Assembly (NCBI GenBank): GCA_027483355.1
Contig: JAIXUW010000292.1
Coordinates: forward strand, 68,628 to 132,627
Length of the DNA: 64,000 nt
Origin: Alphaproteobacteria bacterium
GTDB lineage: Bacteria; Pseudomonadota; Alphaproteobacteria; Micavibrionales; UBA2020
Reading direction: 5' to 3'
Of this stretch, positions 6,921 to 55,017 are shown piece after piece. Under the pieces are notes generated by a model, which was given only the letters and a program-made list of their open reading frames with translations, was not told the DNA's origin and ran no database searches. The translations under genes were made by a program, and so were the position numbers. Each line of letters starts with the position of its first letter. Positions within the stretch are counted from its first letter, which is position 1.

Positions 6921-9731
6921 ATGTTAAAAGCGGCGTTAGTCGCTCTGATTGCTCTTGGAATCGCAACTGTCACCGCGGCCCCGCTTTCAAATGCCGCCGA
7001 GTCTGGCGTATCGCGCTACTGTGGCGCGGTTCTATACAATCGCTTTAACAATGTAAGCGACATTGTGAACTGCGATTTCATGTCCACGGCGTCGTGGCCC
7101 ACTCAAACAATCATAGTAAACAATGTACCGGTCGTGGCCTCGTTTCCCACAGGTAGATTGCGACTCTCTTTTTTCGGAACGTATCCCATGCCGCCATTTG
7201 CAACTGTGTTGCCTATTGGAGATGATAGAAACGATGTGGTTGCAAGTGATCCCGCCATCATGCAGGCCCCGGACTACTTGACGGATTTCAACGGTTTCAA
7301 TCTGAGAAATTATTGGTTCAATACGAGCATGGTTGGGCGTAAATTCCCCGACATGTTGACCTTTTCTATCCCGTGGTGCGCAGCCAATCTTGACTATGCA
7401 ACTCCATACAGTGGAAACGCGACAATTCAACAGCTATACCCGCCCGATTACCCTGTGTGGTCTAATCCGAGTGACACCACGCTCCCCGAGTGCCGCACGC
7501 CGTTGCTGTTCAACTATAGGCCGATCGGAGGCTCTACTGCCGCACAGCGATTTGATACACATTGCAACGGCACATTTTCTCAAACCTGTTTGCAATCGCC
7601 ACGCCTTAACTTTGGAACAGGGCGTCCTAGCGTGCCGAATGACCCTTTCTACTTGACTCGACCTGAATTGGCCGAACTGAACAATTATCCTAGTTACGCA
7701 CTCAACCCCAAAGTTTCAAGATGGGGTCGCAACTACTATGATGTACCTCCGGATTCAATCGGCAATTTCTGGGGCCGAGGAATCGCGCGCGACCAAGGCG
7801 ACGATATAGTCGGCACCTACACATGGATTCGCCCGCCGAATTGCACCATGGAGCTTTATACTAGCCAGAATAAGACACCGATTATCAATTTTGATTTTGA
7901 AGGGCTGTATGATCAACAGGACGGTGCGCCTGTTCTCATTGAGTGGGATTCCAACACACCTGCTGCCAACGCAAGTAGACCTTGGATGAACAGAGTCAGT
8001 TTTATGCCTGGCCTGTCATGTTTCGCATTGAACCCTAGACCGGCATCCGCCCTGCGGTTTTCGGAATCCAACGTGGCTTTAGTGACCGGCATCTGTCGTG
8101 CTACAGCGCCTTGGAACGCGACCAAATACTCGAGCAGTTTAGACCAATTCGCGTATTTGACATTGACCGGTGGCGTCACTCAACCGTCGTCAATCGCACC
8201 TAACACGGTCGCCGTTCAAATCGCAGTCTACAACCTTCCCTCAGATGGAATGTCCGTTTATACTACAGTCGACGCGGTTCAATACGCTCCCAACGGTACT
8301 ATGGACCCCATTGTGCTTAGAGTGAGCAATAATCTGTTTCTGCAAAACGGAAAGATCTCTCAGTTTACGGTTGATTACACTCAAATCGCAGGATCATTCC
8401 AGAACGTATGGGATCTTTTCCTGACCGTGTTTGCGCCTGACAACACTCCCATTTTGTCATTGAGACTTCCCGAAGATAATTCAATCCCTCCATGTGCTTG
8501 CAGACCAAGCGCGGATGTGTTGGACGGGAACGTGATTTGCGATACGGATTTCAAAGTGATTGAAGACACGATCATTACCAATCCTCTCTTCGTGCCAGGT
8601 CAAACCACAGTTAGACCTAACTGTACTATCGTATTGACTTCGGTTCAAGGCTCTTTCATACGAGGGAACTCGACGATAGAGCAGAATTCATTGTACCAAC
8701 TGAACTTGAATATCAACGGCAGTAGCGACAACGGGTATATTGTAGGCTGGAATGTCATGAATAATGGAGCATTGTCCGTGCAAATAGACACTCCGGAAGG
8801 TCAGACAGCTCAATTCAGAGCGTTTGGCGAGGGTCAGTTTACAATTCAAGCTGCGGTCACAGTGCCCGTTTCACTTTTAAAGGGAACGTGCTTTGTCGAC
8901 ATTCAAGTGTTTAGAACATGCGTGACTCCTGCTATAGCGGCTGGAACTACGGACGCGGATTTGAATCAACTGGTCACGCTCGACGCCACTGTAACATTGA
9001 TTCCTAGTGGCAATGTATACTATGATTACTCGTGGACAATTGACAATGCCGTTCCATTATCTTCATTGGGATCGGCGTCGATAACAAACGCGGCTGCGTC
9101 TGTAATTTGGTTTTCTGCGTCAAGCACGGCGCTCTACACTCTTAAGCTACAACTCGACACATACGACGTGACTTCTCTCTCTCTATTATGCGTTCAGTAC
9201 CGATATATCGACATTGCAGTGTCGAACAAGACGCTGCCGCCGATAGACCCGGGAGTCGCAGACACTGTTGTCATTCCCGATGTATGCTTTGAAAACATTG
9301 GCAATTTTACGAAGCCGATTCCACCAACGGGCGAATACATTAACGGGTTGCCGCCGACTGACCCAGTCAATTTCCAGCCCATCGGCAGCGTCAATTTTGC
9401 TCAAGACGATAGCTGGAAACTTACAAAGCTTGTGAGGAATTTGGCAAGAATGAACTTTTCAGAAGAAGACGAAGGAGTAAGAATGAAGAAGGCCGAGTCG
9501 GAGAACTTGGCCGTTCAAATCGCTTACACGGCCATCCGCGTTATTGTTGGAATCTTTGGCACTGCTCTAGGTATTCTAGTATCCGTATCGTTATACACAT
9601 TGTTGCCACTGTCGGCGCAAGAAAAACTCAGGACGTGTTGCTCGCGCAAGAGCTGCAAAAAATGCAAACGCTGCAAGCCGTGTTGCGGCAAGCCCTGTTG
9701 CGGCAAAAAGAAACACAGAAACCAAAAGTAG
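6921..9731 (+). CDS. Type I membrane glycoprotein, paralogue A (936 aa), with a PKD-like Ig domain and a Cys/Lys-rich cytoplasmic tail
   Basis: Internal ATG of track ORF 6756..9731 that starts a signal peptide (MLKAALVALIALGIATVTAAP). It has many NxS/T sequons and a C-terminal TM segment (IVGIFGTALGILVSVSLYTLL). Its Cys scaffold is shared with the 10869..13463 product. Confidence 0.85.
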   Translation: MLKAALVALIALGIATVTAAPLSNAAESGVSRYCGAVLYNRFNNVSDIVNCDFMSTASWPTQTIIVNNVPVVASFPTGRLRLSFFGTYPMPPFATVLPIGDDRNDVVASDPAIMQAPDYLTDFNGFNLRNYWFNTSMVGRKFPDMLTFSIPWCAANLDYATPYSGNATIQQLYPPDYPVWSNPSDTTLPECRTPLLFNYRPIGGSTAAQRFDTHCNGTFSQTCLQSPRLNFGTGRPSVPNDPFYLTRPELAELNNYPSYALNPKVSRWGRNYYDVPPDSIGNFWGRGIARDQGDDIVGTYTWIRPPNCTMELYTSQNKTPIINFDFEGLYDQQDGAPVLIEWDSNTPAANASRPWMNRVSFMPGLSCFALNPRPASALRFSESNVALVTGICRATAPWNATKYSSSLDQFAYLTLTGGVTQPSSIAPNTVAVQIAVYNLPSDGMSVYTTVDAVQYAPNGTMDPIVLRVSNNLFLQNGKISQFTVDYTQIAGSFQNVWDLFLTVFAPDNTPILSLRLPEDNSIPPCACRPSADVLDGNVICDTDFKVIEDTIITNPLFVPGQTTVRPNCTIVLTSVQGSFIRGNSTIEQNSLYQLNLNINGSSDNGYIVGWNVMNNGALSVQIDTPEGQTAQFRAFGEGQFTIQAAVTVPVSLLKGTCFVDIQVFRTCVTPAIAAGTTDADLNQLVTLDATVTLIPSGNVYYDYSWTIDNAVPLSSLGSASITNAAASVIWFSASSTALYTLKLQLDTYDVTSLSLLCVQYRYIDIAVSNKTLPPIDPGVADTVVIPDVCFENIGNFTKPIPPTGEYINGLPPTDPVNFQPIGSVNFAQDDSWKLTKLVRNLARMNFSEEDEGVRMKKAESENLAVQIAYTAIRVIVGIFGTALGILVSVSLYTLLPLSAQEKLRTCCSRKSCKKCKRCKPCCGKPCCGKKKHRNQK

Positions 9732-17116: not shown

Positions 17117-20100
17117 TTAAAGGAGCCCCGTGGCTTGTTTTGCAAACCAATTGCTATAAAAGGGTTTGCCGTTTGCAGAGACGGGTACAGGTTCGGGATC
17201 GGGTTGATTCAACGACGGTAGCGGATTCGTTGGTTCTACGCTGCTCGTGTTCGGCAATATTGACGTTTCGAAAGCCGGCGGCGGTGGCGCTGTAGGAAAA
17301 CTCATGCCAGGCGCCGGGTACGTTTCAGACGAGAACGGCTGTGCAAAACTTGTGTTAGCCGCTGTGGACGTTTCATACAGGGACGGCTGCGCAAAACTTG
17401 TGTTAGACGTCATAGACGTATCGAACGGGACTCGGAGCGAAAAATTCGCAGGCTCCATGTCACTCACGTTGGGTAACATTGACATTCCATAGGGCGACAA
17501 GTTGTCGCTAGGCAACGTGTTTGTACCCGTTGAAGCATACAAGTAGTTTGCGATTGCTGCAGCGGTGCCAACGAGCGCGACGGCTGCTGCGGCCTTGACG
17601 TAAGGCGTGGCCTTTCCAAGCAGACCCATTATTTCCCACCCTTTTGTGACAATCAAGTTTTTCTTTTTCCCCGGATCAACTGCAATTTTGTTCTGGACAA
17701 TGTCGTTGAATTCCTTTTCTTTTACCTTGAGTTTAGTCTCAATCTGAGCCAGTTGCGGCGGCAATTCATCGTCGTCGTCGTCATCGTCTAATGCCAATTG
17801 CACTGTTATAGGGCCAGGTTGATTTGACGAATTTGACCCCGTGTATGCAATTGGTGCGTTTTGAGCGCGGTTCGGTGCCTTTGAAAAGGTATTGCGCTTG
17901 CGTTTTCCGGCGGGCTTTTGCACAACAGGCTGGTTTGTAACGGGCGCAGCCGGAACATTGGGTTGAATAGCAACAGGCACTTGCGGCGCTTGTGGCACTT
18001 GAGGTTGGATGACTGGCGCTTGTGGCACTTGAGGTTGGATGACTGGCGCTTGTGGCACTTGAGGTTGGATGACGGGCGCTTGTGGCACTTGAGGTTGGAT
18101 GACTGGCGCTTGTGGCACTTGTGGTTGGATGACGGGCGCTTGTGGCGCTTGCGGTTGAGCGGGAGGCACTTGAGGTTGCACAACAGGCAGTTGTGGCTGG
18201 CCGGGAGGCGCTTGTGGTTGCACGACGGGCACTTGTGGCTGAACAGCGGGAGCCACTTGTGGCGGAGCGGCAGGCGGGTTTCTTCTAAACCAATTTCCAA
18301 TGCTATTCACAATATCTCCAATCACTGCTGCTTTTTGAGGAACATACGCGGCTGCCTTTCTGAGACTAGACAGTACTTCTCCGGCTTTGCGTGTGAGCTC
18401 GGCGCCGTAGCCTGGTCTCTCGTACAGTTTCCGATACTCTCTAATCCTTTCCCTAAGCTCGCTGACTTCCGTTCTCGCAGCCGAGGCCTCAGATTCGACC
18501 TGTTTAGCACGCGCAGCCACCCTTCTCGCCTTTGCCTTTGCCGATCGAAGTTTCGCCGCGTTCTGACTCGACGCTCGCGAGTTGAATTTCATTCCGGCGA
18601 ATGTATTCTGCATTTCTTTCAATGCATATTCACCCAAGTGACCGGCTCGTTTTGTCAAATGCGACTTGTTCCACAGACTGTAGCGAGCCGTGGACGAGAA
18701 GGTGCTGCCCAAGTCCCACGCGATGAAAAGAGTAGTTTTCGACTTTTCCACATCGGCATTTTTTGCAAAATACGCGCTTATAGCTTTTTCTTCTTCCTCA
18801 AGCGTAATTGGGAGGAAATCAAACTCGGAGGTCGAGAAAATCGGCCGAATGTTGTCTGCCACGTAATTCTCTGCCGCCTTCACGTCGTATGCAGCAATTA
18901 CGACTTTTGTAACGACACCACTGAGAAGGAAAAGTGCTTCTGACATCGCTAACAAAGACACGGCGGGGACGGCAAGCCTGATCACTGGATATCCGTACCG
19001 CGCATCTCTCACGAGATACTCTTTGAAAATGTTTTGGTGGTACAGTGCTTCCATAATCAACTTTGAACCGCTCAAATACTGCTTGAGAGACAGTTCGCCG
19101 ATCAAAGTGCGAGACTGAGCCGATTCACGCAGTTCGGTTGCCGAAAATCCGTAGTTGACAACGGCATCGGGCGACGGGAAGCATCCATCGTAAATGTCGA
19201 ATGCGATCGAGTAGATGGCCGTGGTCACGGGCGCCCATGACTCAGTTGCGGTTTTTGCGAGACTCTGCACTTTGTCGGCCCATTCTTTAACAAGCGGGGT
19301 TGCCGCGTTTTGTGCTTGAAAGTGCTTGCCGATGACTTGCACAGCACGCATCAATTGTTCCACGCTGCCCTCGTATAAGAACGGTTGAAATTGAGCGTCC
19401 AAGATTGCCATACAGAGTTCTTGACCGAGTCCGGTCAAGTTGTAAAAGTCCATTTTGGACAATAGATCCAAAATTTTGTCGGCATAACCTTCCGATGCTT
19501 TGCTATACACTGCAGCGGACTTGATCCACGTGTCCACGAGTTCCTTTTCCAATTTCTCGTAGCTGGGGTCCGGAAGAACCAAATTTCTCGCCGCGTGAAC
19601 CTCGTCCCGAATCGTTGTTATGCTTTCTTCAGAAGCAGTCCAGCCGACCAGAGTGGCTGCAGCGGCAACTTGCACAGTGTCAGTCGAATCGACCTTTGCG
19701 AACACGTCGTATATTTGACGCGCTCGAGGCGGAAGCTGATTGATCATTGCCTGCATTCCGGTAATGGTAATAATCGAAGTGTACGTTCCGTATTTTTCAA
19801 ACGCTTTGGGCTCGCTGTTGAACGCACACGCGACCGCTTGCTGGTATTTTGTGAATATGGACAGATCCGGAAGCTTTGGCTTTTTCTCCTTTGGCGGCTT
19901 TGCATCGGGCGCAGGCGCGTCTTGGTCTCCATTTTCCGGAGCCGACATCTGTTCTGCCTTTCTTTTGCCCTTGGGTTTGGAATTACCGCCGCCGGCTTTT
20001 GGACCCCGAAGTTCAAACAGAGAGTTTGTCGGCGAGACGTCCATGGCGTCCTCCTCGTTCTTTTTCTTTTTAGACGACTTGCTCTCACGCTTGGTCAGAT

Positions 20101-23100
20101 CAATGCTTGTTTTCTCGTCGGGGCTGTCGCGACGTCTTGTTGCAATAGCAAGCAACATTAGCCGAATCGCAAATGCGACTAGCAACAACGAATTGTCGCC
20201 TTTTATGTTGTTTTGACCCATCACTCTACTAAGAGCGCCCAGCACGCGCTGGCAGTGTTCCGTCACCAAGTTTGATCTTTCAAAATATTCCAGCGTTGGC
20301 GTGGAAGTCAAAATCTCGCGGAAAAGTCCAAAGTGCGTTGGCGTTTTCATGGCCAAGCAGACGCCGTCGCAGAACAAGCGCAGATCTGTTTTAGGAGACA
20401 TTGGCGTTCCCTTTTGCACGACCTTCTCGGCGTCCTCGGTGGAAACAAGTTTTTTCTCCATCATAGAACCGCCCCATCTAGTCTGGGAATTTGACACGAG
20501 CATTCTTGGGGGCACTTGCGATTCCGGGACCAGTGCAAATCCGACTTCCGCTGGTATTTTGTCGAACCAACGACTTTGCACATGTTGAGCGTAGTGAATG
20601 ACCGCCTGAGCGTGTTCTTTGTCGCGTCCTTTCAATTGTTCACCGTTGCCGGATACAAGGGCGATGGAAGCCTGAGTAACAAAGCCGGCGTTTTCAAATC
20701 TGTTCACGGATTCTGTGATCAGTGGAATCATCTCATTCGTAATTTCCAAATGCAATCCAATGAGACCTAGATCGGTAGCAAGATGATTGATAAACCCGAC
20801 AAGTGTAACTGTCCTTTCGTCTATCGTTATCCACTCAGATTCGAGAATTCCTCTAATCTTGTTGTAGAGAGAAAAGAGCGGCCCGGGCTGAAACGTGTTC
20901 TCGACAATATGCAACGCTTTCACAAGTGCCGCAAATGCCATGTACACAGAGCACCAAAATCTTGAAATAAAGTGCGTTTGCATTCTCCAGAGCTCGGTGT
21001 CGACAAAAGCCGCTTTGGCGGATCGCAGCGCCATTTGATAAACACTCAAAATGTCCAATGCACGTTGTATGATACGTTCAAACGTAATCGTCGCCATTGA
21101 AGCGTTGAATTCAATGTAGGATGGCACATGGTATGAATACGGCGCATTGTTGGTTTCGAACAAATGTGTTGCAAAAATATCGGAACTGCTCTTCATCCTG
21201 TACACCATGTACTGTAATTTTGCACAATGTGGAATCATAGAGCGCAGTTCTTCGGGAGCAAGCCGAAGCATTTTTGAGGTTTTTGGGATCTGAACCGCAT
21301 TTGCCAAGTTTTTCACCGTGGCAATCAACGCGTCGACCGTGATCCTATTCTGCGGAAATGCAAGATTGAAATGTGACTTTTGGCTGACAAAAGCCGATTT
21401 TACGAGCCGGTAAATTGTCTTGATGGCAGCACCGGACAAATCCAGGTTCCTTGTGCCCGAAATACTCTGCATTGTAAACGGAGACGGGAATTCCATGGTT
21501 GTGCTAGTGCCAAGCATTTCCTTTCTCAGCCTTTCAGCTCGCTCGGCAACGACGCCGTCGGGCGCAATGCGGACAAAATTATTGTCCAGTGCATCGAACG
21601 AGTTAAGAATATCGTCGGGCTTCAGTCTAGAGTCGTCAAATTTCTTTGCCACGGCGATAATCTCTGTGCCCAAGAACTCTAAAAACACATCAAACTGTTC
21701 ACTTGTTTCAGCACTGTTAAACACAGAGGGCAGCCACGGGAACCGCATTGTGAGGCGGTCTACTTCAAGCGACAGATCCACCATGTCTTGAGTCAAATTC
21801 GGAACAGAGCTCTTCTCAATTTTGTACAACACGGCATTGGCTGCAAAATTTGCATCAACAAATCTCTTGTATCGCTTTGCAAACCAGGCGTGCCAACGGC
21901 TGTTAGGATCACGCAATAGAGACATGAGCAGCCGCGCGAATTTTGTGTTTCCGGGCAGCATGTAACAAGGCAGATATAGACTGGGCAGGTTTCCCTGTCC
22001 AAACTTAATGCCCCACGCCTTTTTCATGGCCTCGAAGAGAATTCGTCCTTCGGACGCTTCCTGTTCAAAGGAAACCTTGTCGCCTTCTTGACTTTTAGTC
22101 TCGCATAACTTGAACAAAAGAACAAACGCGCCAATGGATTCGGCAAGCCAAATATGAAATATAGATTCTTCAGTGGACGGAACTGCAGTTCCATCGGCAA
22201 TTTCCGAAAGGTTCTCAAAATACTGCTTCCATTTGTCATTACCCTGAGAGTTTACCGCAGCGTCGATAACCGCAGAGAACCTCAATCCATACAGCAATTT
22301 TGGCGAAGGGTTGGCAACAGCGGACAAAAATTCACTTGCAGAAAGAGCCAACTCTGATTCTTTAACAGTATCCTCTCCTTGTTTTCTCTGAGTAACAAAC
22401 TCGGCGGCACCATAGGTCTCAAGCTTGGCGCCTTCGATTGTGTTGCACAGTCGTGCCAACAAAGCGCTTGGGTAGATTCCAGTTTGCACTGAAAAGGGAA
22501 ATTCAATCCGCTGCGATTCCTTTTGCACAGCATCCTCGTACGAGGAATTCCTCACGGGAATCATATAGTTTTGAGGCAGACACAATGCCGACCCGGCAAG
22601 TTTACCCAGCGAAAGGCTGCCAAGCGGAAGTTTGCTTCCTTCGTCAACGGCGGTGACTACATGGCGAGTGAATACTTGGCTTGTATCGACGCAAAAGGCT
22701 TCTGTGTAACTGTCCGCTTTCACAAGATTGTCTATAACACGTTCGGGATGCATGTCGACAGCCGCAGCGAGGCTGCGCCCTTGAAGATCAGGGCGGAATT
22801 TTTCGCGCAGAATACCTTTTACGTCGTCGAGATCAATGTCAAAGGAGACTTCTCCGCTTTTCGTATCGTCGTAATTAACGTTCTTGTCGGACACCATATA
22901 GAGAATAGCTTCAATGGTCTCGAATCCGTCATCGTCTTCGTCGTCCTCGCCGTTCTTGTCTCCGTTCTTGTCTCCGCCGCCGCCATTATCATCATCCTCG
23001 TCGCTGTCGGCTAAGAACGAGTCTTCCTCGTTTTCGGAAGATGACGCTTTTTTAGCAGGTACAGCTGCAGGGTTGTCCACATCCATAGCGTCGTCAGACT

Positions 23101-24319
23101 CGTCGTCACTGCTGTCTATTTGCTTCCAGCCATCGTCAAATGAATCGTAGTCACTATCTTCAGCAAAAATCGTTTCCGCCGATGCCTTGTATTCGTCTTC
23201 AATTCTTCCTCTCAGCTGGTTTGTCAACACGTCTATTTCTTCGGCGTTATAACTACCGGAATCCGCAAAAATCGTTTTACTGGACCTGTACGCGCGATGA
23301 AGAGCGTAGACCGCCGCAGTTAAGCGCTCTTCGTCCAACGTATCGTCGACTCCCTCGATCATTTCCGGGATCAATGTAACGGGCTTTTGCACATAAGGAG
23401 AAGTATCCGTAGTTGTTGCAATATCAACAGCCGCGAGCTTTAAGCCGAGCAAGATGGCCAAGTCCGCGTAGATGAACCGGAATCTCGGCAGCAATTCAGC
23501 TCTACTTTGAGCCGAAAGTGAAATCCACAACGCTGCCGCGAACGCAGCCGTTTTTATCAAAAGGAAACACGATCTTTTCATACTTTCCGGCAAGAATGCG
23601 CCCATGGCGTCGTCATACGCATAAAACAGTCTATACATGTCCGTGGACAGATTTTTGTATATCAGAGCCACGACAGACGGATCCGTTACGGGTTCTGCGC
23701 ATTCAACGTCTGAGAATTCCGCGGTGAACATGGAAGGCGGAGTTGGAAGCAGACTCTGTTGGTTCACCTTGGTTTGCAGAAACTCGTGCGCTGTTTCAGA
23801 GACGATTCTAGCAAATTTTGCTTGTGCTCCAATTTGATCCGTCAGAATGTAGTCGCATAAGAAAGCGATATAGTGGTATGTCTTTTCCAACGCCAAAGCG
23901 TCAAGAAGAATCGTTTCGTTCGAGGTCATCTCATCGCCGACAAAAATCTGTTTTTGACGATTAACGACCAAGGGCATAAATGTAGCCATGAAATATCCGG
24001 TCTGACCGTTGGCGGAAAACAGAGCATCTCTCCATTGTTTTTGCAAATCACGTTTCTCCGAGTCCGAGTCCGCAAATTCGATTCCAGAATCGTCGTATGA
24101 AAATAACTGAACCAGGCTCTCGGAAAAGGAAGCATACTGCGCAGATGATTGAGCGGCGTTTTTCAACCATGCGTTGTACTCTAGCGCGCGTGCTCGCAAC
24201 TGATTGTAGTTTAGATAGCGCCTATTGCCACCGAAATATTGCTTGTAGTTTTGCGGGTCAAAAAGACTTTGTATAGAACCGAGGTCAACGTCGGAAATCT
24301 TCAAGTTGTTCTCTGACAT
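17117..24319 (-). CDS. Very large tail-anchored protein (2400 aa) with acidic tracts and a PQ-rich tandem repeat
   Basis: The first ATG is at 24319 (MSENNLKISDVDLG); the track start is TTG. It has acidic runs (DSSDDESDD, DDDDDDDE), a basic coiled segment, five PQVPQAPVIQ repeats and a hydrophobic segment near the C-terminus (AAAAVALVGTAAAIANYLY). Confidence 0.85.
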   Translation of the reverse strand: MSENNLKISDVDLGSIQSLFDPQNYKQYFGGNRRYLNYNQLRARALEYNAWLKNAAQSSAQYASFSESLVQLFSYDDSGIEFADSDSEKRDLQKQWRDALFSANGQTGYFMATFMPLVVNRQKQIFVGDEMTSNETILLDALALEKTYHYIAFLCDYILTDQIGAQAKFARIVSETAHEFLQTKVNQQSLLPTPPSMFTAEFSDVECAEPVTDPSVVALIYKNLSTDMYRLFYAYDDAMGAFLPESMKRSCFLLIKTAAFAAALWISLSAQSRAELLPRFRFIYADLAILLGLKLAAVDIATTTDTSPYVQKPVTLIPEMIEGVDDTLDEERLTAAVYALHRAYRSSKTIFADSGSYNAEEIDVLTNQLRGRIEDEYKASAETIFAEDSDYDSFDDGWKQIDSSDDESDDAMDVDNPAAVPAKKASSSENEEDSFLADSDEDDDNGGGGDKNGDKNGEDDEDDDGFETIEAILYMVSDKNVNYDDTKSGEVSFDIDLDDVKGILREKFRPDLQGRSLAAAVDMHPERVIDNLVKADSYTEAFCVDTSQVFTRHVVTAVDEGSKLPLGSLSLGKLAGSALCLPQNYMIPVRNSSYEDAVQKESQRIEFPFSVQTGIYPSALLARLCNTIEGAKLETYGAAEFVTQRKQGEDTVKESELALSASEFLSAVANPSPKLLYGLRFSAVIDAAVNSQGNDKWKQYFENLSEIADGTAVPSTEESIFHIWLAESIGAFVLLFKLCETKSQEGDKVSFEQEASEGRILFEAMKKAWGIKFGQGNLPSLYLPCYMLPGNTKFARLLMSLLRDPNSRWHAWFAKRYKRFVDANFAANAVLYKIEKSSVPNLTQDMVDLSLEVDRLTMRFPWLPSVFNSAETSEQFDVFLEFLGTEIIAVAKKFDDSRLKPDDILNSFDALDNNFVRIAPDGVVAERAERLRKEMLGTSTTMEFPSPFTMQSISGTRNLDLSGAAIKTIYRLVKSAFVSQKSHFNLAFPQNRITVDALIATVKNLANAVQIPKTSKMLRLAPEELRSMIPHCAKLQYMVYRMKSSSDIFATHLFETNNAPYSYHVPSYIEFNASMATITFERIIQRALDILSVYQMALRSAKAAFVDTELWRMQTHFISRFWCSVYMAFAALVKALHIVENTFQPGPLFSLYNKIRGILESEWITIDERTVTLVGFINHLATDLGLIGLHLEITNEMIPLITESVNRFENAGFVTQASIALVSGNGEQLKGRDKEHAQAVIHYAQHVQSRWFDKIPAEVGFALVPESQVPPRMLVSNSQTRWGGSMMEKKLVSTEDAEKVVQKGTPMSPKTDLRLFCDGVCLAMKTPTHFGLFREILTSTPTLEYFERSNLVTEHCQRVLGALSRVMGQNNIKGDNSLLLVAFAIRLMLLAIATRRRDSPDEKTSIDLTKRESKSSKKKKNEEDAMDVSPTNSLFELRGPKAGGGNSKPKGKRKAEQMSAPENGDQDAPAPDAKPPKEKKPKLPDLSIFTKYQQAVACAFNSEPKAFEKYGTYTSIITITGMQAMINQLPPRARQIYDVFAKVDSTDTVQVAAAATLVGWTASEESITTIRDEVHAARNLVLPDPSYEKLEKELVDTWIKSAAVYSKASEGYADKILDLLSKMDFYNLTGLGQELCMAILDAQFQPFLYEGSVEQLMRAVQVIGKHFQAQNAATPLVKEWADKVQSLAKTATESWAPVTTAIYSIAFDIYDGCFPSPDAVVNYGFSATELRESAQSRTLIGELSLKQYLSGSKLIMEALYHQNIFKEYLVRDARYGYPVIRLAVPAVSLLAMSEALFLLSGVVTKVVIAAYDVKAAENYVADNIRPIFSTSEFDFLPITLEEEEKAISAYFAKNADVEKSKTTLFIAWDLGSTFSSTARYSLWNKSHLTKRAGHLGEYALKEMQNTFAGMKFNSRASSQNAAKLRSAKAKARRVAARAKQVESEASAARTEVSELRERIREYRKLYERPGYGAELTRKAGEVLSSLRKAAAYVPQKAAVIGDIVNSIGNWFRRNPPAAPPQVAPAVQPQVPVVQPQAPPGQPQLPVVQPQVPPAQPQAPQAPVIQPQVPQAPVIQPQVPQAPVIQPQVPQAPVIQPQVPQAPVIQPQVPQAPQVPVAIQPNVPAAPVTNQPVVQKPAGKRKRNTFSKAPNRAQNAPIAYTGSNSSNQPGPITVQLALDDDDDDDELPPQLAQIETKLKVKEKEFNDIVQNKIAVDPGKKKNLIVTKGWEIMGLLGKATPYVKAAAAVALVGTAAAIANYLYASTGTNTLPSDNLSPYGMSMLPNVSDMEPANFSLRVPFDTSMTSNTSFAQPSLYETSTAANTSFAQPFSSETYPAPGMSFPTAPPPPAFETSILPNTSSVEPTNPLPSLNQPDPEPVPVSANGKPFYSNWFAKQATGLL
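18001..18150. repeat. Five tandem copies of a 30-bp unit (gaggttggatgactggcgcttgtggcactt), in frame within the 2400-aa CDS
   Basis: Read directly: the units start at 18001, 18031, 18061, 18091 and 18121 with 1-3 substitutions. Degenerate copies flank the array (about 17940-18265). The unit encodes PQVPQAPVIQ on the minus strand. Confidence 0.9.
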
Positions 24320-26633: not shown

Positions 26634-26811
26634 TCTTCGGAGTTTCTACCTTCACCAATAAAAAACAATGCCGAGGGCCATGTAAGCTGTGCAAATATTA
26701 AACGTCAAGACAGTTTAAACCGGCCCGTTGGAGTGCAAACGTTTAATTTTCTTGTCGAGCCAAATTCCTTTTTGACGCATTCAGACGGTGTCAAACACAC
26801 AAAAGAAAAAA

Positions 26812-28815: not shown

Positions 28816-30765
28816 TTATTTATTGCCATAAAACCTTTGTAAAGTTCTCGTGTTGACTTGCACGTCGGCGGGGTGAGGTACCTTTGCAAAACTGATATTC
28901 TCAAATTTCCTTGCTCGCGATGCGGCCACGTAGAGCGAGTGATTTCCAAAACATTGACCATTTCCTTCGTTTTGAACATGCACGTTGTTCAATGTCATTC
29001 CTTGCGCTCTATGAACGGTGATAGCGTAGCCTAAGTAGAAGGGCCACTGCACTCGACAGGCAACTTCTTTCGCTTCAGGCACTTTCTTGACCGGGTTGTA
29101 CTTGAACTCGTAGCATGAAAACTTCTGAGGGTAGACAAGAACAGGGATATCCAAATGTTCAAATTTGACAAGCACGCAAGTGCAATTATCTAGACCTCGA
29201 TGCGGAGACTTGGGCGCGACAGCGCATGGCGCAAACAAATCCGAAACCCGATCGCCAGGCTTTTCCTCCCAGTGTTCGGAACATATGCTCAGAAATGACG
29301 ACCAGCCCGAAGACGAGCCATCGGCGTCATGCACGTTGACACGGCAGTGAAGATCAGCATTCTTGCTGCTTGCTCTATTTTCTGCGGCGTAATTCATCAA
29401 ATCAACCAGATCGGCGACTTTAGCTCCGCCACCAAAGTTGAAAACGTAGTTGGATAAAGATGCGCCGGAGTAGTCCGTTGTTTGAAACGTCAAAATGGCC
29501 TGTACAATTCCGCGCGCGCCCTTGACGATTCCACTGTTGACACAAATGTTGTGAATCAAAATCACAGATGCTCCCACGCACAAATCGACAGAATTGGGGA
29601 GAGCGTCGGCCAGGTCGGAAGCGTAGGCTTGGAGCATATACTTCTCTTGAGGCGGGCCCAGAGGGCTGAAATCACACGCAAGTTGATTCGCCAACTTGAA
29701 ATTGCGTTTTTGAGACACGATTCCGTACAGAACACCGTTGATATGCGACGCGAGATCGTTTTGCCCAACGAGCATGACGGGCGCGTCCTTTGGGCTGACT
29801 TTAGCCCTATCTAACACTTTGTCTAATGCGTTGACTTTGATGAGCTCGGAAAACTTGCCCGGGTCCAGGCCTCCAACACGCATAGAGGAGAGAAAATCCT
29901 GAAATCTCTCGTCGTCCTTGGCTCTTTGATTCTGTTCCAACGAGAGCACATGAGGCGCGAAGAGGGCCCATAGTTCGGATTCCCAGCAACATTGGGCTGG
30001 CGCCGTCGGCCGAGACACGGGCTCGAGTTGAAGTGGGTCGCCCACAAGGACGATGGTTGGGAACGAGTTTTTCCACGCCGAGCCCATTTGGGCGAAATTA
30101 CGCAAGAGAGGCATCCAAAAGCTGCCGTTCAGAAAATACTTGTCTTCCGCAGGTTTGGAATCGTATTTGTTCATATTGGACGAGTAGGTCGTTTGTCTAG
30201 ACCCAGAAGAAGCACTTGCCTTGGCGTGATATTCACGCAGAGCGGTTCTGACCTCGGGAAAGTAGTCCCGTGGATCCGTTCTTTTCCAAAACGCGATGCA
30301 GCACATGATAAACCGTGCCATAAAACGATCGAATAGCTCCGCGCTCATCATGCTGATCTCGTCTATCACAACGTACTTTAACTTGCCGCGCAGAGAGAAC
30401 CAAGGTTCAAGCCGTTCGTTGCACGTGGCTTGAAATCGCTTTTTGTTATCGTAACAAATACCTTCTATCCATTTAGAATCAGCGTCCATTAAACAGAACG
30501 CGCGATGAATCGTACAAGCGCGGTGTTCGGAGAAATTAGACGCGGCTTGATTTGTTGTCGCCGTAATCATGACCTCGCCCTCGCTATGATTTTTCAACAA
30601 GTGCTTGACAAGATGAGATTTTCCGGAGCCTCCAGGAGCCGCGAGAAAGTACACAGGAGACACGCGGCTTGTAATGGCATTGTACGCTGCAGCCTGTTCA
30701 CTTGAAAGTGGGCTGGCCTCAGAGACAGCCATTTCTTCGTCAGAGTCGTAAATAACAATGGCCAT
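28816..30765 (-). CDS. PIF1/RecD-like SF1 helicase (649 aa)
   Basis: The motifs appear in order: Walker A AAPGGSGKSH (30616-30642), Walker B VVIDEISMM, GDPLQLEPV, LEQNQRAKDD..F, VGASVILIHN...VKGARGIV, ITVHRAQGMTL and LYVAASRAR. The first ATG is at 30765 (MAIVIYDSDEE); the track start is TTG. Confidence 0.85.
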   Translation of the reverse strand: MAIVIYDSDEEMAVSEASPLSSEQAAAYNAITSRVSPVYFLAAPGGSGKSHLVKHLLKNHSEGEVMITATTNQAASNFSEHRACTIHRAFCLMDADSKWIEGICYDNKKRFQATCNERLEPWFSLRGKLKYVVIDEISMMSAELFDRFMARFIMCCIAFWKRTDPRDYFPEVRTALREYHAKASASSGSRQTTYSSNMNKYDSKPAEDKYFLNGSFWMPLLRNFAQMGSAWKNSFPTIVLVGDPLQLEPVSRPTAPAQCCWESELWALFAPHVLSLEQNQRAKDDERFQDFLSSMRVGGLDPGKFSELIKVNALDKVLDRAKVSPKDAPVMLVGQNDLASHINGVLYGIVSQKRNFKLANQLACDFSPLGPPQEKYMLQAYASDLADALPNSVDLCVGASVILIHNICVNSGIVKGARGIVQAILTFQTTDYSGASLSNYVFNFGGGAKVADLVDLMNYAAENRASSKNADLHCRVNVHDADGSSSGWSSFLSICSEHWEEKPGDRVSDLFAPCAVAPKSPHRGLDNCTCVLVKFEHLDIPVLVYPQKFSCYEFKYNPVKKVPEAKEVACRVQWPFYLGYAITVHRAQGMTLNNVHVQNEGNGQCFGNHSLYVAASRARKFENISFAKVPHPADVQVNTRTLQRFYGNK

Positions 30766-34480: not shown

Positions 34481-34613
34481 ATTTGGATATTTAACACGCG
34501 CGTGCACACACGGCCAATGTTATAATAAATCAAAGGACATTGATTCTCGAAAAAGAAGAGCTGGCAGCTCAGAACAATCCCCCAACTGCGCGTGTGTGCT
34601 CGCAAGAAAAAAA

Positions 34614-37964: not shown

Positions 37965-38162
37965 TGAGAAAATCGATAGCGGCAAGTGCAACGGCCGGCC
38001 CAGTGTTGTTCGGGGTGCTCCGCGTCCCTGACTCGTAGCGAGTGAGTTTCCAAAGCAGTTGTCGCTTGTCGTTTTCTGCGCCCGCTGCACTGGTCGCTAT
38101 CGCAAAAGTTTACGGACAAATTGGATATACATTCCTTTGTTTTAGTAAAAACTATTTCGTAA

Positions 38163-38172
38163 TTTTATAACA
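38163..38172 (-). promoter_or_regulatory. Recurrent 10-mer TGTTATAAAA (copy 3 of 3)
   Basis: Exact 10-mer in the AT-rich gap upstream of the 37071..38090 ORF. Confidence 0.35.
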
Positions 38173-38288
38173 TCCGCCGATGTATACATGGCCGGGAATT
38201 TTTGATCTCGTCATCTGCGCGTATTTTACAATGCAATCATGCAGCCATAAGTTCTATAAAATCATAATACATTTATATACAATATTCG

Positions 38289-38519
38289 TTAGGACACATC
38301 CATGGCGTCGGGGTCGGCGGGAATATTTGCGTGTTCTTGAACGGAGTCCGGTGCATTTTCAGGAGATTGAGCATTGCTAGAATGTGGCACTTGAGTCGAC
38401 AAGTTTAATAACTGAACGCGACGCTTGCATAATCCGCTGCCGTCGGACTTGACGTAAAACGGCGCCGCCGGCCTGTAGCTCTTTTGCGCGGCGATAATCG
38501 CTTCCCGTCTGTCCGCCAT
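38289..38519 (-). CDS. Possible small protein (76 aa)
   Basis: ATG at 38519 (MADRREAIIAAQK) with CATATAGAATTATC about 20 nt upstream. It is short and has no recognised motif. Confidence 0.35.
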   Translation of the reverse strand: MADRREAIIAAQKSYRPAAPFYVKSDGSGLCKRRVQLLNLSTQVPHSSNAQSPENAPDSVQEHANIPADPDAMDVS

Positions 38520-38558
38520 GGCGCTTGATAATTCTATATGTACACACACAAATTGCGT

Positions 38559-41351: not shown

Positions 41352-41435
41352 TTTTTTCTTTTTTCAAACGCGCGGCCCTATTTACAAAGTTAGCCAACGC
41401 ATCGTATCAAAAATTGAACTTTTCTAGTCGTAATA

Positions 41436-41441
41436 TTTATT
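41436..41441 (-). terminator. AATAAA hexamer about 15 nt after the stop of the methyltransferase gene
   Basis: The minus strand reads ...GGCGGAAAATAAATATT. Assigning it as a poly(A) signal is an inference. Confidence 0.4.
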
Positions 41442-41455
41442 TTCCGCCGAAGAAT

Positions 41456-42709
41456 TCAATCTACGCTAAGTCTATACACAAAACCCGGATTGGATTTTGT
41501 GTTCCACGCGACGTCAATTCCAGGCACTTCGCGGACCAATGTGGCGCGCACATTCTCTACCATGAAACTCAATTGAAACACAGACTCGTTTTTGTTTCGT
41601 CGTGAAGCGCCGAGAGCACACGTCGTAATAATGTAGTGTTCTTTTGCTTGCACGTTTTCTTTCTTTCCCAGGAGAGCCGTGGCCAATCGATAAAGAATAG
41701 CTTGCTCTAAAGTGTAAAACTTGATGCCGTCAACGTTGAGAGCCGCAGTGCGGCGATTGGATCCTGAATGGACCGTGTCGAAATTGTCATTCGTCATGTA
41801 GTAAATGTTAGCCGCCATGTAGTAGGGCATAGCTGAGGGCGCGGTCGCGTCCTGGCATACAAGCCAATAGTTGGGATCTGTGCTCGAATAAAACTCTCGG
41901 TTCACGTAATTTCCAATTTGAACCAATTCAGGCACGCATTCGATTCCAATAGACGGAATGCCGATCGTAGTCGCCACTTGAGCGACAAGACTGCCTGTCC
42001 CGGCGCCGATATCTAACAGCATATCGTTTGGTCCCCATGGTTTAACACAATTTTTGTCGTTTCTGCTTGTTCCAAACACCGCGGCCACGCCTTCGGGCAA
42101 CGTGACTCCAAATTGTAGCGGATCTCTCGCGCCCGCGTTTGAAGTTTTGTACAGACAGTACGCGGGATACTTTTGACACGCAGAGCGTCGCGCTGCACAA
42201 AATGTAGAATAGGGCACGCCCGGAACAGGAAACCGATGGTTTAGCGTGTAGAAAATCTGCCCGTCTTCTTGCGGTGTGTACAAAATCCGATTCAAATACT
42301 CGACTTTGGAGGAGGTCTCCTTGTCTGCAAAAGTAGTGCTTATCTTGACTTCAGCTGGTACGATGGACGGCGCCAGCAGGCTGGCATGTGAAAACTCGAA
42401 TAGGAGTCTTTGATTTCCATGTGTGGCAATGTACGTAAAATCGGGTGTGAATCCAACAGAAAAGAGCCCCTGCTCTTCTTCTATCAGGACGCCCTTGCGT
42501 ATCGTAACACCCGCGTATTTCATAATGCAATCTGATAAATTGATATTCACAGAGTAAACTGCATTGAGAGTAGGCACCAGTCTCTTAATATGAGAGGCGG
42601 GGACGGCGTTTCCGGTGATAAACGCAAAATAATCGAATGTTCCGCTTTGCGAGAGCATAATATCTCTCGAATCTATTCGAAACAATTCATCGAATAATAT
42701 CGCAGTCAT
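41456..42709 (-). CDS. Class I SAM-dependent methyltransferase (417 aa) with DOT1-like motif order
   Basis: Motif I is MLLDIGAGTGSLVAQVA (about 41991-42020), followed by the post-I acidic SIGIE, then CQDAT and IYYMTNDNF. Compare DOT1 FVDLGSGVGQVVLQVA...GVE...GDF...VIFVNNFAF, recalled from memory. ATG start (MTAILFDELF). Confidence 0.8.
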   Translation of the reverse strand: MTAILFDELFRIDSRDIMLSQSGTFDYFAFITGNAVPASHIKRLVPTLNAVYSVNINLSDCIMKYAGVTIRKGVLIEEEQGLFSVGFTPDFTYIATHGNQRLLFEFSHASLLAPSIVPAEVKISTTFADKETSSKVEYLNRILYTPQEDGQIFYTLNHRFPVPGVPYSTFCAARRSACQKYPAYCLYKTSNAGARDPLQFGVTLPEGVAAVFGTSRNDKNCVKPWGPNDMLLDIGAGTGSLVAQVATTIGIPSIGIECVPELVQIGNYVNREFYSSTDPNYWLVCQDATAPSAMPYYMAANIYYMTNDNFDTVHSGSNRRTAALNVDGIKFYTLEQAILYRLATALLGKKENVQAKEHYIITTCALGASRRNKNESVFQLSFMVENVRATLVREVPGIDVAWNTKSNPGFVYRLSVD

Positions 42710-42753
42710 TAGTGAATATCAATAGTCGCAAATCGCGCGCTGGCGGGTGAAAA

Positions 42754-43019
42754 GTTGCGACGATCGCAACGACGATGGTTCGGATCCGCCATAGAAAAGT
42801 CGACTTCCTCCAAATCCATCAGAATATTCTCGGAATGTTTTAATTGTAATTCTAATATATATTAGACGCACTTTGTCTTAATTCACCTAGTGAATTCAAG
42901 CGAGGAGAGGCAAACGAAAAAAATAGGGCCAAGTCACGATGGCCAAAAAAAATTTTTTGGGCCGGGGCCCCGGGCGGAAATTTTTTTTTCGGACCATCGT
43001 GAGTAGGACCGATTTTTTT
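42754..43019. repeat. Cluster of palindromes/hairpins and A/T homopolymers in an ORF-poor gap
   Basis: Read directly: GTTGCGA-cga-TCGCAAC (42754-42770); the perfect 16-bp palindrome TCTAATATATATTAGA (42851-42866); AATTCAC-cta-GTGAATT (42880-42896); GGCCA-n8-TGGCC (42927-42944); GGCCA8T6GGGCC (42941-42963); CCGGGGCCCCGG (42962-42973); T9 (42981-42989); T7 (43013-43019). Confidence 0.8.
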
Positions 43020-43374
43020 GGGATCTCGCATAGCCGGTTTAGCATTATCACATACTAGGTCCCATAAATTTTTATTTGATATGTATACACCTAAATATGA
43101 GTTTTCCAACATTCGGAATCAATAGACGCGAGAACAGAGTTTGCTCGCCGCGGATATTAACAGGTATTCATATTCAAAAAGCACATGAGTTTCATGATTT
43201 GAGTAAGACTTAAATGCGTAAATGACGCTTAAATCAAATTTAGAACGAAACGCCAGAAAAACTGTCCAAACGAGGTCGTTGCGATCGTACGGATTTTTCG
43301 CGCTTAGGCACTTTGTAGATTTCGCGGCATATATTTTACAATATAGATACATGATTATGTGACAGTATTAAACT

Positions 43375-43430
43375 CGCAAATCGCAAATTTATGGCAATGG
43401 GGGCGCAAAACAGCGCAAATAATGCGCAAA
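43375..43430. repeat. Array of five CGCAAA hexamers within 56 bp
   Basis: tCGCAAAtCGCAAAttt...ggCGCAAAacagCGCAAAtaatgCGCAAAaatt, ending 2 nt before the stop codon (43433-43435) of the 114-aa minus-strand gene. Confidence 0.75.
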
Positions 43431-43432
43431 AA

Positions 43433-43777
43433 TTACGAAGACTTGGAGCGCTGCGCGCCGAACGCCACCTTCTTATAAGTGGCTATTGCATTAAGCAAAT
43501 CTGCTTTTTGAAACCGCCAATACAAGTTGGTATCGGTTTCGTGAGGCCATGAGATAATAATGGGCCCTCCGGCGTCGGAAATTTCAATGGGCTCTAGGGG
43601 CACTTTATCGCTGCCCTGAAGTTGAAACGTGATGTAGACTGTATGTCTGGTTTCTTCGTATATACTTACTTTTGGCATGAATTCGTAAAACTCTCGTATC
43701 AATTCCGAGACGAATTCAGCGGCCAGCCTGAATCTGGCAGCGCGACTGGGCTCGTTTGCGGGTGCTGCTGACGACAT
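43433..43777 (-). CDS. Small hypothetical protein (114 aa)
   Basis: ATG start (MSSAAPANEPSRAARF). The composition looks protein-like. No motif recognised. Confidence 0.6.
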   Translation of the reverse strand: MSSAAPANEPSRAARFRLAAEFVSELIREFYEFMPKVSIYEETRHTVYITFQLQGSDKVPLEPIEISDAGGPIIISWPHETDTNLYWRFQKADLLNAIATYKKVAFGAQRSKSS

Positions 43778-44891: not shown

Positions 44892-45413
44892 TTTTTGCGC
44901 GCGATTGGTTACAAAAATAACTGAGACACAGAAAAGAAATTAGACTCAAGAATAGAAATGTTCATTTTATTCTTTTTGAAAATCGGCACCCCCCCTCACC
45001 CGCTTGTTTTGCGCCCGAGTACAAAAATAGAAATTTTTGTAGCCCCAGTGTAGCTACCTCAGTCTGTTCCGCGCATTACTCGGAACTTGCTATCTTCTAT
45101 CGCCACAATTACATTGTGTTTTTGTTTGTCATCCAAACCAATAATTAAGAACATCCACCGCCATGGGTGCGCACACGGCCGCGGACAGCTTAGCGACTTT
45201 TCGACTTTTGTAAAAACGCGCTAATGTTTTATCTCTAATTTTCTATTAGCTCAAAAAAATACAGACATTGCATTTTCGGCATTCCGCCCCGATGATCTCG
45301 GTCTGGGCAGCCTCGGCAACGCCACTTCTCTTTTGGAGCACCGTCGCGCCGACGGTCGAGCCGGGCCTGCCTTTTTCGCAGGCTCTAGATCCGCTGGCAC
45401 ACTTGCCGATATC

Positions 45414-54789: not shown

Positions 54790-54894
54790 TTTTGTGAGAT
54801 TCGTGAGTATACAATGAAATGCGTGCTTTGTATAGCGTGTCAGATACAATAAATTGGGTTAAACCGTGAACCCATGTGCGTTTTTTGGTACTGG

Positions 54895-54912
54895 AAAATT
54901 GCGCGCAATTTT
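54895..54912. repeat. Perfect 18-bp palindrome AAAATTGCGCGCAATTTT in an intergenic gap
   Basis: Read directly. It lies between the start of paralogue 2 and the stop of paralogue 3 and contains GCGCAA on both strands. Confidence 0.8.
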
Positions 54913-55017
54913 GCACACTTACCCAAATTGGACCAATCGACGCTGGCTCACTGGAAATACCACAGCAAAGAAATATACATTAGTACATCAATACATGCCT
55001 AATACACGTTGATGAGA

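Follow-up and report, generated by a model that had tools for sequence, protein, structure and literature searches.

Introduction

The origin oriS of herpes simplex virus 1 (HSV-1) contains three boxes that OBP (origin-binding protein) binds with decreasing affinity, of which Box 1 and Box 2 are inverted around a spacer (PMC12543377). Among baculoviruses, the non-hr origins on record are single-copy and palindrome-rich, and the homologous regions (hrs) carry imperfect palindromes of about 30 bp within repeats (PMC6669502). In this study, the gap at positions 42710-43432 of a 64-kb window was analysed and compared with these systems. The window is the whole stretch of 64,000 nucleotides under study; it belongs to a 292,368-bp record (contig JAIXUW010000292.1) that appears to derive from an unclassified large double-stranded DNA (dsDNA) virus of a marine eukaryote. 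A first-pass annotation had described this gap as a candidate replication origin or regulatory hub holding many separate palindromes. Our results indicate another organization, in which the gap has as its functional core a single dyad element present in one copy, and not many palindromes independent of one another. This element adds one more case to the conserved dyad-symmetry elements of viruses, here in an uncharacterised clade.

The locus resembles oriS and oriL of HSV-1 in that a single dyad lies in a promoter-bearing intergenic region, with inverted boxes and a weaker third box (PMC12543377), and in that relatives share the sequence of the boxes but have diverged in the DNA around them. 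Of the features typical of these origins, an intergenic dyad and inverted boxes conserved in relatives, to which an initiator would bind, are present here; an A/T-rich centre between the boxes is not. Instead of a short A/T spacer, this locus has a spacer of 53-59 bp whose palindromic centre is rich in G/C and has A/T tracts on its sides. Its box sequence is unrelated, no UL9-like protein was found in the window, and only a weak Herpes_Helicase match points toward Herpesvirales. The non-hr origins of baculoviruses (AcMNPV HindIII-K, SeMNPV and OpMNPV, all nucleopolyhedroviruses) are similar in being single-copy regions with palindromes, direct repeats and AT stretches (PMC6669502); the definition of those origins comes from replication assays and from their enrichment in defective interfering genomes, whereas the present element was recognised from sequence alone.

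The composite palindrome and its conservation

Two independent relatives were compared with the window. One is TARA_SAMEA4397004_METAG-scaffold_7 (L007), a 208-kb TARA Oceans scaffold of which 19 kb were sampled; L013 and L014, from the Joint Genome Institute (JGI), represent the same relative. The other is L008, a 15-kb Logan contig from SRR11430616 that begins within the palindrome. The 930-aa protein encoded near the gap has two relatives at 55-56% identity, and gene order is kept in L007 and L008, with orthologues of w417, w930, w297, w503 and w473 at 38-56% identity. Orthologues of the two genes upstream of the gap (339 and 114 aa) were undetectable in the relatives, being too diverged. 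After the start of the L007 DOT1-like gene was corrected to 8364, the orthologous L007 gap spans 698 bp (7666-8363), compared with 723 bp here. Exact k-mer sharing over the whole window was too noisy, and syntenic gap comparisons were used. The gap lies 3' of the 114-aa gene and 5' of the 417-aa gene, and the features that carry the argument are as follows.

42710-43432, no strand: non-coding gap between the stop codon of the 114-aa gene and the ATG of the 417-aa gene, from the gene map
41456-42709, minus strand: 417-aa gene, starting at 42709, with a weak match to DOT1-like methyltransferases
43433-43777, minus strand: 114-aa gene, with its stop codon at 43433
42905-43030, no strand: composite imperfect palindrome of about 100-126 bp, centred on 42967/42968
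42917-42967 and 42969-43019: arms of the palindrome after seed extension, 51 nt each and 75% complementary
42994-43006, minus strand: upstream arm box CTACTCACGATGG (gene-sense), with an exact 12-mer at 8060-8071 of L007
42930-42942, minus strand: downstream arm box CCATCGTGACTTG (gene-sense), a degenerate copy of CCATCGTGAGTAG
42959-42977, no strand: G/C-only core GGGCCGGGGCCCCGGGCGG, 19 nt, the longest G/C-only run of the window
42962-42973: perfect 12-bp palindrome CCGGGGCCCCGG within the G/C core
42927-42944: GGCCA-n8-TGGCC
42941-42963: GGCC-A8T6-GGGCC
42945-42958, minus strand: A8T6 on the plus strand, A6T8 in gene sense, with its T run just upstream of the downstream box
42978-42989: AAA-T9 on the plus strand (T9 at 42981-42989), A9-TTT in gene sense, pairing with A8T6 in this genome only
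42917-42923: outer A7 tract, pairing with the outer T7 tract
43013-43019: outer T7 tract, pairing with A7 at 42917-42923
42770-42778, minus strand: degenerate third box CCATCGTCG (gene-sense), 164 nt downstream of the downstream arm box
42851-42866, no strand: perfect 16-bp AT-rich palindrome TCTAATATATATTAGA

The palindromes, homopolymer runs and CGCAAA array listed in the first-pass annotation are each present where it had placed them. Five of the listed items, however, belong to one imperfect palindrome, which unites GGCCA-n8-TGGCC, A8T6, the GC dodecamer, T9 and T7. Read along the minus strand, the element is CTACTCACGATGG-TCCG-A9TTT-CCGCCCGGGGCCCCGGCCC-A6T8-GG-CCATCGTGACTTGGCC. As single-stranded DNA, positions 42900-43035 fold with -35.3 kcal/mol (z -5.65 against shuffles), and the palindrome is the strongest 140-nt fold of the window (z -5.6; next best, -3.6). 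Its G/C core abuts one of the four A/T-only runs of at least 14 nt in the window, and of the eight 30-bp duplex segments with the lowest stability in the window, three fall within the gap, to either side of the palindrome.

In L007, the element reads CTACTCACGATGAC-T6-GCCCGAGGCCCGGCCCGGGTCGACCCGGTCGGCC-A3T10-CGG-TCACCGTGAGTAGGCC, and L008 starts within it, with T6-G-CCATCGTGAGTAG. The inverted arms are CTACTCACGATG(G) and CCATCGTGAGTAG; the former is exact in L007, and the latter, which is the reverse complement of the upstream box, is an exact 13-mer at 8-20 of L008. By our own estimate, about 0.06 exact 12-mers are expected by chance between the two gaps, and about 0.006 exact 13-mers with the 280 nt of L008. 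The downstream box CCATCGTGACTTG aligns with TCACCGTGAGTAG at 8130-8142 of L007 and with 8-20 of L008. The resulting box consensus is (C/T)CA(T/C)CGTGAGTAG, 13 bp in length, with two inverted copies, most of them preceded by a T run. The box pair lies 53-59 bp apart and flanks a perfectly palindromic G/C core with A/T tracts. The inverted arrangement is kept in L007, with a spacer of 53 nt versus 59 nt, and L007's own box pair is complementary at 13 of 14 positions. The core of L007 is a different G/C-rich sequence that again holds a perfect palindrome, the 14-bp CCGGGTCGACCCGG.

In the gap alignment, identity peaks on the palindrome, at 0.70 over 40 columns, compared with 0.43 overall. The best local alignment reaches z 4.6 against shuffles, while two other orthologous spacers give z 0.1-0.7; this lack of conservation elsewhere indicates that neutral DNA is saturated between these genomes. 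Since the arms are conserved in two relatives in which the other tested intergenic DNA is saturated, the gap evidently holds a cis-element under selection. The first-pass annotation had named a lack of conservation as one possible refutation; these matches show conservation. In the more distant relatives L015 (SRR17938973) and L016 (SRR24908177), at 27-28% identity, both gene order and motif are lost. Logan contigs from SRR16126875/78/79 are 100% identical to the window and have no comparative value.

The symmetry of the A/T tracts and the stability of the hairpin are not conserved. L007 has T6 where the window has A9-TTT, and its hairpin (z -1.7) is outside the eight strongest 140-nt folds scanned in L007. 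Because the box sequence is conserved and the hairpin energy is not, the arms are more readily understood as duplex DNA read by a protein than as a stable hairpin.

Possible functions of the element

The paired boxes, taken as protein-binding sites, may form a single-copy replication-origin core, which is the function that we tentatively place first. It was ranked first because the dyad origins of the herpes type offer the best match to an element that is present once, has an inverted box pair around a spacer and a weaker third site, is flanked by DNA prone to melting and lies in the largest spacer; the match to the single-copy non-hr origins of baculoviruses is looser. The iteron-like CGCAA copies of this genome were also counted in its favour. 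In such an origin, the boxes would be recognition sites of a putative virus-encoded, sequence-specific DNA-binding protein, and the element would be the central part of an origin of lytic replication, situated in an intergenic region that also bears a promoter. The protein, when bound to both inverted boxes, might bend the A/T tracts between and beside them and make these tracts less stable, as happens at HSV oriS. Both protein binding and origin function are what we infer from the arrangement. Of the proposed "origin or regulatory hub", a cis-element in a non-coding region is what stands, and the origin is unproven.

Several observations weigh against an origin. The cumulative GC skew, which the first-pass annotation had suggested as a check, shows no inflection at 42.9-43.0 kb and turns near 44-45 kb together with the switch of gene strand, although in such viruses skew makes a weak test. 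With its 19-nt G/C-only run, the dyad has a centre rich in G/C, unlike the A/T-rich origins of herpesviruses, and the A/T-tract symmetry is lost in L007. No candidate origin-binding protein (a UL9-like superfamily 2 (SF2) helicase) was detected by Pfam among the window proteins, which are mostly orphans and represent about 22% of the genome; the only replication-type gene of the window, encoding a Pif1-like helicase, is 12 kb away. The single-copy status refers to the sampled DNA, that is, 64 kb of the 292-kb genome, with the remaining ~228 kb outside. The relatives are two in number, and one of them (L008) is truncated inside the palindrome, leaving 280 nt for comparison. Finally, the constant distance to the ATG and a third box about 60-100 nt upstream of it fit gene-specific transcriptional control equally well.

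Such gene-proximal control, in which a viral regulator of the DOT1-like gene would use the boxes as operators or enhancers, comes a close second to an origin core. The G/C hairpin and the sense-strand T run would then terminate transcription of the 339-aa and 114-aa genes, and the gap would be a terminator-plus-promoter boundary. Several distances are consistent with this. From the palindrome centre to the ATG there are 259 nt here and 261 nt in L007. The degenerate third box, which here lies about 60-70 nt upstream of the 417-aa ATG, is found 162 nt downstream of the arm in L007 (8292-8304) and 163 nt downstream in L008 (171-183), as against 164 nt here; its conservation is suggestive only, since L007 and L008 are alignable with each other at this place. 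AT-rich palindromes also occur in L007 and L008 (ACAATATTGT and CAATATTG), 37-46 nt downstream of the arm, so that a TATA-like palindrome stands 37-65 nt downstream across all three genomes; in the window it is TCTAATATATATTAGA, possibly a TATA-like promoter element of the 417-aa gene. The first-pass annotation had called TCTAATATATATTAGA an AT palindrome, and it is perfectly palindromic but AT-rich rather than purely A/T. The T run before the downstream box is likewise kept, and only on the sense strand (T8 here, T10 in L007 and at least T6 in L008). A consensus scan places terminator-like sites on the minus strand. In DNA viruses, it is common for an origin to coincide with a promoter.

Control of a single gene explains other properties less well. 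Runs of at least five T within 60 nt after stop codons show no orientation bias (15 sense versus 11 antisense), so termination at T runs is not a demonstrated rule in this genome, and a general T-run terminator rule was rejected on these counts. The palindrome is more than 400 nt past the upstream stop codon, in a window where typical intergenic gaps measure about 100 nt. The core does recall a bidirectional intrinsic terminator, since it reads A8T6, G/C palindrome, A3T9 in this genome; it differs from one in that the left A tract is T6 in L007, that A3-6 stands between the stem and the T run, and that the T runs are unbiased in orientation. The sampled DNA contains no second gene with the box, an unusual situation for a regulator, and for one promoter alone a pair of 13-bp boxes, spaced 53-59 bp about a G/C palindrome, is an elaborate layout.

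The folding of the arms also raises the possibility of a structured non-coding RNA or a pre-miRNA-like hairpin with the conserved arms as its stem, which we consider unlikely. The minus-strand RNA of the palindrome folds with -46 kcal/mol (z -3.8), and both species keep the arm stem, in which one change is compensatory (G-C to A-T) and two are wobble-compatible. Contig L004 spans the whole gap, which is relevant if the Logan runs are RNA sequencing data. On the other hand, Rfam gave no match at E up to 1 and no tRNAs were found; the L007 hairpin is weak, as described above; and the 53-59-nt spacer of G/C and homopolymer sequence is unlike pre-miRNA loops. The sense-strand T8-10 between the arms would stop polymerases of the Pol III type, or others sensitive to T runs, before the second arm. 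The compensatory change is a single one, and symmetric protein sites would co-vary in the same way.

The palindromic centre recalls sites of DNA processing. In the telRL-type protelomerase sites of phage N15, a palindromic centre is flanked by inverted recognition repeats. By analogy, a symmetric viral enzyme could recognise the inverted boxes and cut at or near the palindromic G/C centre; telomere resolution, concatemer resolution, site-specific recombination, packaging and genome isomerisation were considered, and a role of this kind is improbable. The centre is perfectly palindromic in both species despite its different sequence (12 bp for CCGGGGCCCCGG, 14 bp for CCGGGTCGACCCGG), and the conserved inverted boxes that flank it follow the general plan of protelomerase targets. 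Two short-read contigs, L005 (corresponding to window positions 41426-43004) and L008 (1-20), end inside the palindrome, at the box and the T run. However, three assemblies, namely the 292-kb record, the TARA scaffold and L004, read through the locus, and breaks of contigs at palindromes with G/C and homopolymer sequence are a common sequencing artefact; the ends of L005 and L008 probably reflect an assembly or coverage failure at the dyad. The flanks consist of ordinary unique genes and not of inverted terminal repeats. Neither the window nor the flanks in the relatives showed a recombinase or protelomerase domain, and the arms are 53-59 bp apart, unlike those of protelomerase sites.

The first-pass annotation had also likened the gap to homologous-region enhancers. 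An hr of the type found in baculoviruses and white spot syndrome virus (WSSV), one of a set of dispersed, repeated palindromes serving as enhancer and origin, is very improbable here. The likeness lies in an imperfect intergenic palindrome of a large dsDNA virus that could be both enhancer and origin. Those hrs, in contrast, are multi-copy tandem arrays dispersed over the genome. Tandem units are absent from this locus, and no second copy of the arm motif turned up in the 64-kb window or in the sampled parts of L007 (19 kb) and L008 (15 kb). A search for repeats of the block, which had been proposed as a check, found box and palindrome to be single-copy in the window and revealed no dispersed repeat family there. 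A pattern scan of IMG/VR for the box pair gave four matches, which lie inside phage coding DNA and were rejected as chance.

Chance symmetry in an AT-rich spacer, or the remnant of a decayed gene, is the least probable of these explanations. Its support comes from the hairpin counts, in which perfect stems were scored against dinucleotide shuffles. The whole gap holds eight stems of at least 6 bp, compared with 4.9 +/- 2.3 in shuffles (67 of 500 shuffles reach eight), and four of at least 7 bp, compared with 1.3 (33 of 500), which is only modestly above the null. Only a 270-bp sub-window chosen post hoc stands out, with seven versus 2.1 stems of at least 6 bp (9 of 1000 shuffles) and four versus 0.6 of at least 7 bp (6 of 1000). 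Thus, the hairpin density of the gap is less exceptional than had been claimed. Nor is the density of symmetric elements unlike that of other gaps, since 44892-45413 (nine hairpins of at least 6 bp in 522 bp) and 54790-55017 (six in 228 bp) are denser per kb. A/T homopolymers are likewise general to the gaps of this genome (55 intergenic A5/T5 runs versus 17 expected). Against an absence of function, the box sequence and position are conserved across three genomes with saturated spacers, and the fold is an outlier.

Few experimental handles on replication and gene control exist in this clade, and a conserved non-coding element is among them. Nearly all proteins of the window genome are orphans, and its close relatives consist of one TARA Oceans scaffold and one short-read contig only. 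The 13-bp box could be used as a probe for its putative binding protein, the element of about 130 bp as a defined fragment for assays, and the box-core-box pattern as a metagenome marker for further members of the clade. If the element is an origin, the herpes-style arrangement of paired initiator boxes around a dyad would extend to a new virus lineage. If it is a site of DNA processing, it would suggest a hairpin-ended or invertible genome in a new clade of marine large dsDNA viruses.

Coding status of the gap

The gap is non-coding. With its 723 bp, it is the longest non-coding stretch of the window in our own gene map (runner-up, 594 bp), which agrees with the first-pass description of the longest stretch poor in open reading frames (ORFs). 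Coding potential was scored in six frames by a three-periodic Markov model trained on long ORFs, for which the 1st percentile of true coding chunks is 0.015; the score is below zero across 42660-43380. Two ORFs in the gap are called as genes in public collections.

42852-43112, minus strand: 86-aa ORF, coding score -0.048, judged non-coding
43119-43352, minus strand: 77-aa ORF, coding score -0.040, judged non-coding

Both scores fall within the distribution of spurious ORFs, and tblastn against the relatives gave no match for either. In the six-frame comparison with the relatives, matches occur on the palindrome only, in every frame and on both strands, which indicates conservation of nucleotides and not of a peptide. 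The public gene calls are thus probably spurious, and the possibility, raised earlier, that these ORFs are genuine genes found no support in score or peptide conservation.

The 594-bp gap at 37965-38558 contains a small conserved ORF of about 63-86 aa; its local alignment with 12898-13089 of L007 reaches z 9.5, and the gap is partly coding. An apparent 4.3-kb ORF-free stretch at the start of the window is not a gap and belongs to a giant minus-strand ORF of more than 2,230 aa (1-6692, start at 6692), which leaves the window at its left edge. This ORF was missing from the ORF list, so that the first 5.6 kb seemed falsely ORF-poor; Pfam gave no match for it. The gap at 44892-45413 is a divergent-promoter gap and shows no conservation with the orthologous L007 spacer (z 0.4).

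Other elements in the gap

Further features of the gap are mostly confined to this genome.

42749-42773: left-hand partner in an inverted pair of 25 nt whose core, CGATCGCAACGAC, is an exact 13-mer; not conserved in L007
43275-43299: right member of the same pair (GTCGTTGCGATCG...), species-specific
42754-42770: hairpin GTTGCGA-CGA-TCGCAAC, inside the left member of the pair
42880-42896: hairpin AATTCAC-CTA-GTGAATT with a 7-bp stem, not seen in the relatives
43375-43430, plus strand: CGCAAA x5 array, that is, UUUGCG x5 in the 3' flank of the 114-aa gene
43194-43234, minus strand: short colinear conserved blocks ATTTAAGCG, TACGCATTTA and TCAAATCAT in the distal half of the gap

CGCAA occurs nine times in the gap, compared with 2.3 expected; five copies lie within 56 nt, forming the array, and there are four more. 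The L007 gap has two copies, which is background density, and lacks the array; what recurs in L007, three times, is GCGCTAC/GTAGCGC, which forms the outer part of the box in that genome. The CGCAAA array and the 25-nt inverted pair are statistically real here and specific to this genome, and most small hairpins of the gap, as judged from the relatives, are likewise species-specific. The spacing of the conserved blocks at 43194-43234 differs by 8 and 12 nt between genomes, which indicates that a reading frame is not kept. The only arrays that Tandem Repeats Finder (TRF) reported, both short and weak, are at the gap's distal edge (43374-43388 and 43403-43432), with none around the palindrome.

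Outside the gap, A-runs stand directly before the ATG of many genes, for example at 41352-41365, 44892-44905, 34600-34613 and 26800-26811. GTGTG, GCGCGC and ATTAAAC/GTTTAAT are enriched upstream of genes, and GCGCAAAA has five copies outside the gap, all in sense orientation, upstream of four genes. The A-runs and the upstream-enriched motifs may be promoter or leader elements of the virus. A poly(A)-signal rule was tried and rejected, as AATAAA/ATTAAA occurs downstream of eight genes in sense and of seven in antisense.

Genome type and gene content

The window most likely derives from an unclassified large dsDNA virus of a marine eukaryote, which we infer from the lack of phage similarity, the scarcity of Pfam matches, the genes with their own spacers, the lack of Shine-Dalgarno sequences, and TARA Oceans relatives with a Sina-type RING gene. 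No DNA similarity was found to 50,697 phage records, and PHROG gave no match for ten window proteins; on these results, an origin of the phage type was rejected. No Shine-Dalgarno pattern was seen, each gene having its own spacer. Only three Pfam-level assignments were obtained among about 34 window genes, namely a Pif1-like helicase, a PKD domain and a weak DOT1 match. A sequence search of the PDB with three window proteins gave no match, the AlphaFold model of the 930-aa protein has a pLDDT (predicted local distance difference test) score of 32, and a word-indexed search found no homologue of the 417-aa protein. IMG/VR yielded no relative of the window, the sampled DNA of the window virus and its relatives showed no hallmark gene for a capsid or a polymerase, and no baculovirus core gene was detected in the window.

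The family of the 930-aa protein comprises about 11 representatives at 50% clustering among 1.8 billion, all from metagenome or raw-read assemblies. The relatives carry Sina_RING, dNK, YqaJ, DOT1-like and Pif1-like genes. In L007, the end of the scaffold (19240-19257) is a run of 15 C, either a poly-G sequencing artefact or a genome terminus.

The helicase gene at 28816-30765 (minus strand) encodes a Pif1/RecD-like superfamily 1 (SF1) helicase with a short C-terminal match to Pfam Herpes_Helicase (E 1e-4); this partial match is a faint hint of a herpes-like replication module and not evidence for one. An orphan ORF of 2,400 aa (17117-24319, minus strand) contains an in-frame tandem repeat of 30 bp x 5.8 at 17985-18157, with 95% matches, and further repeats of 21, 42 and 48 bp.

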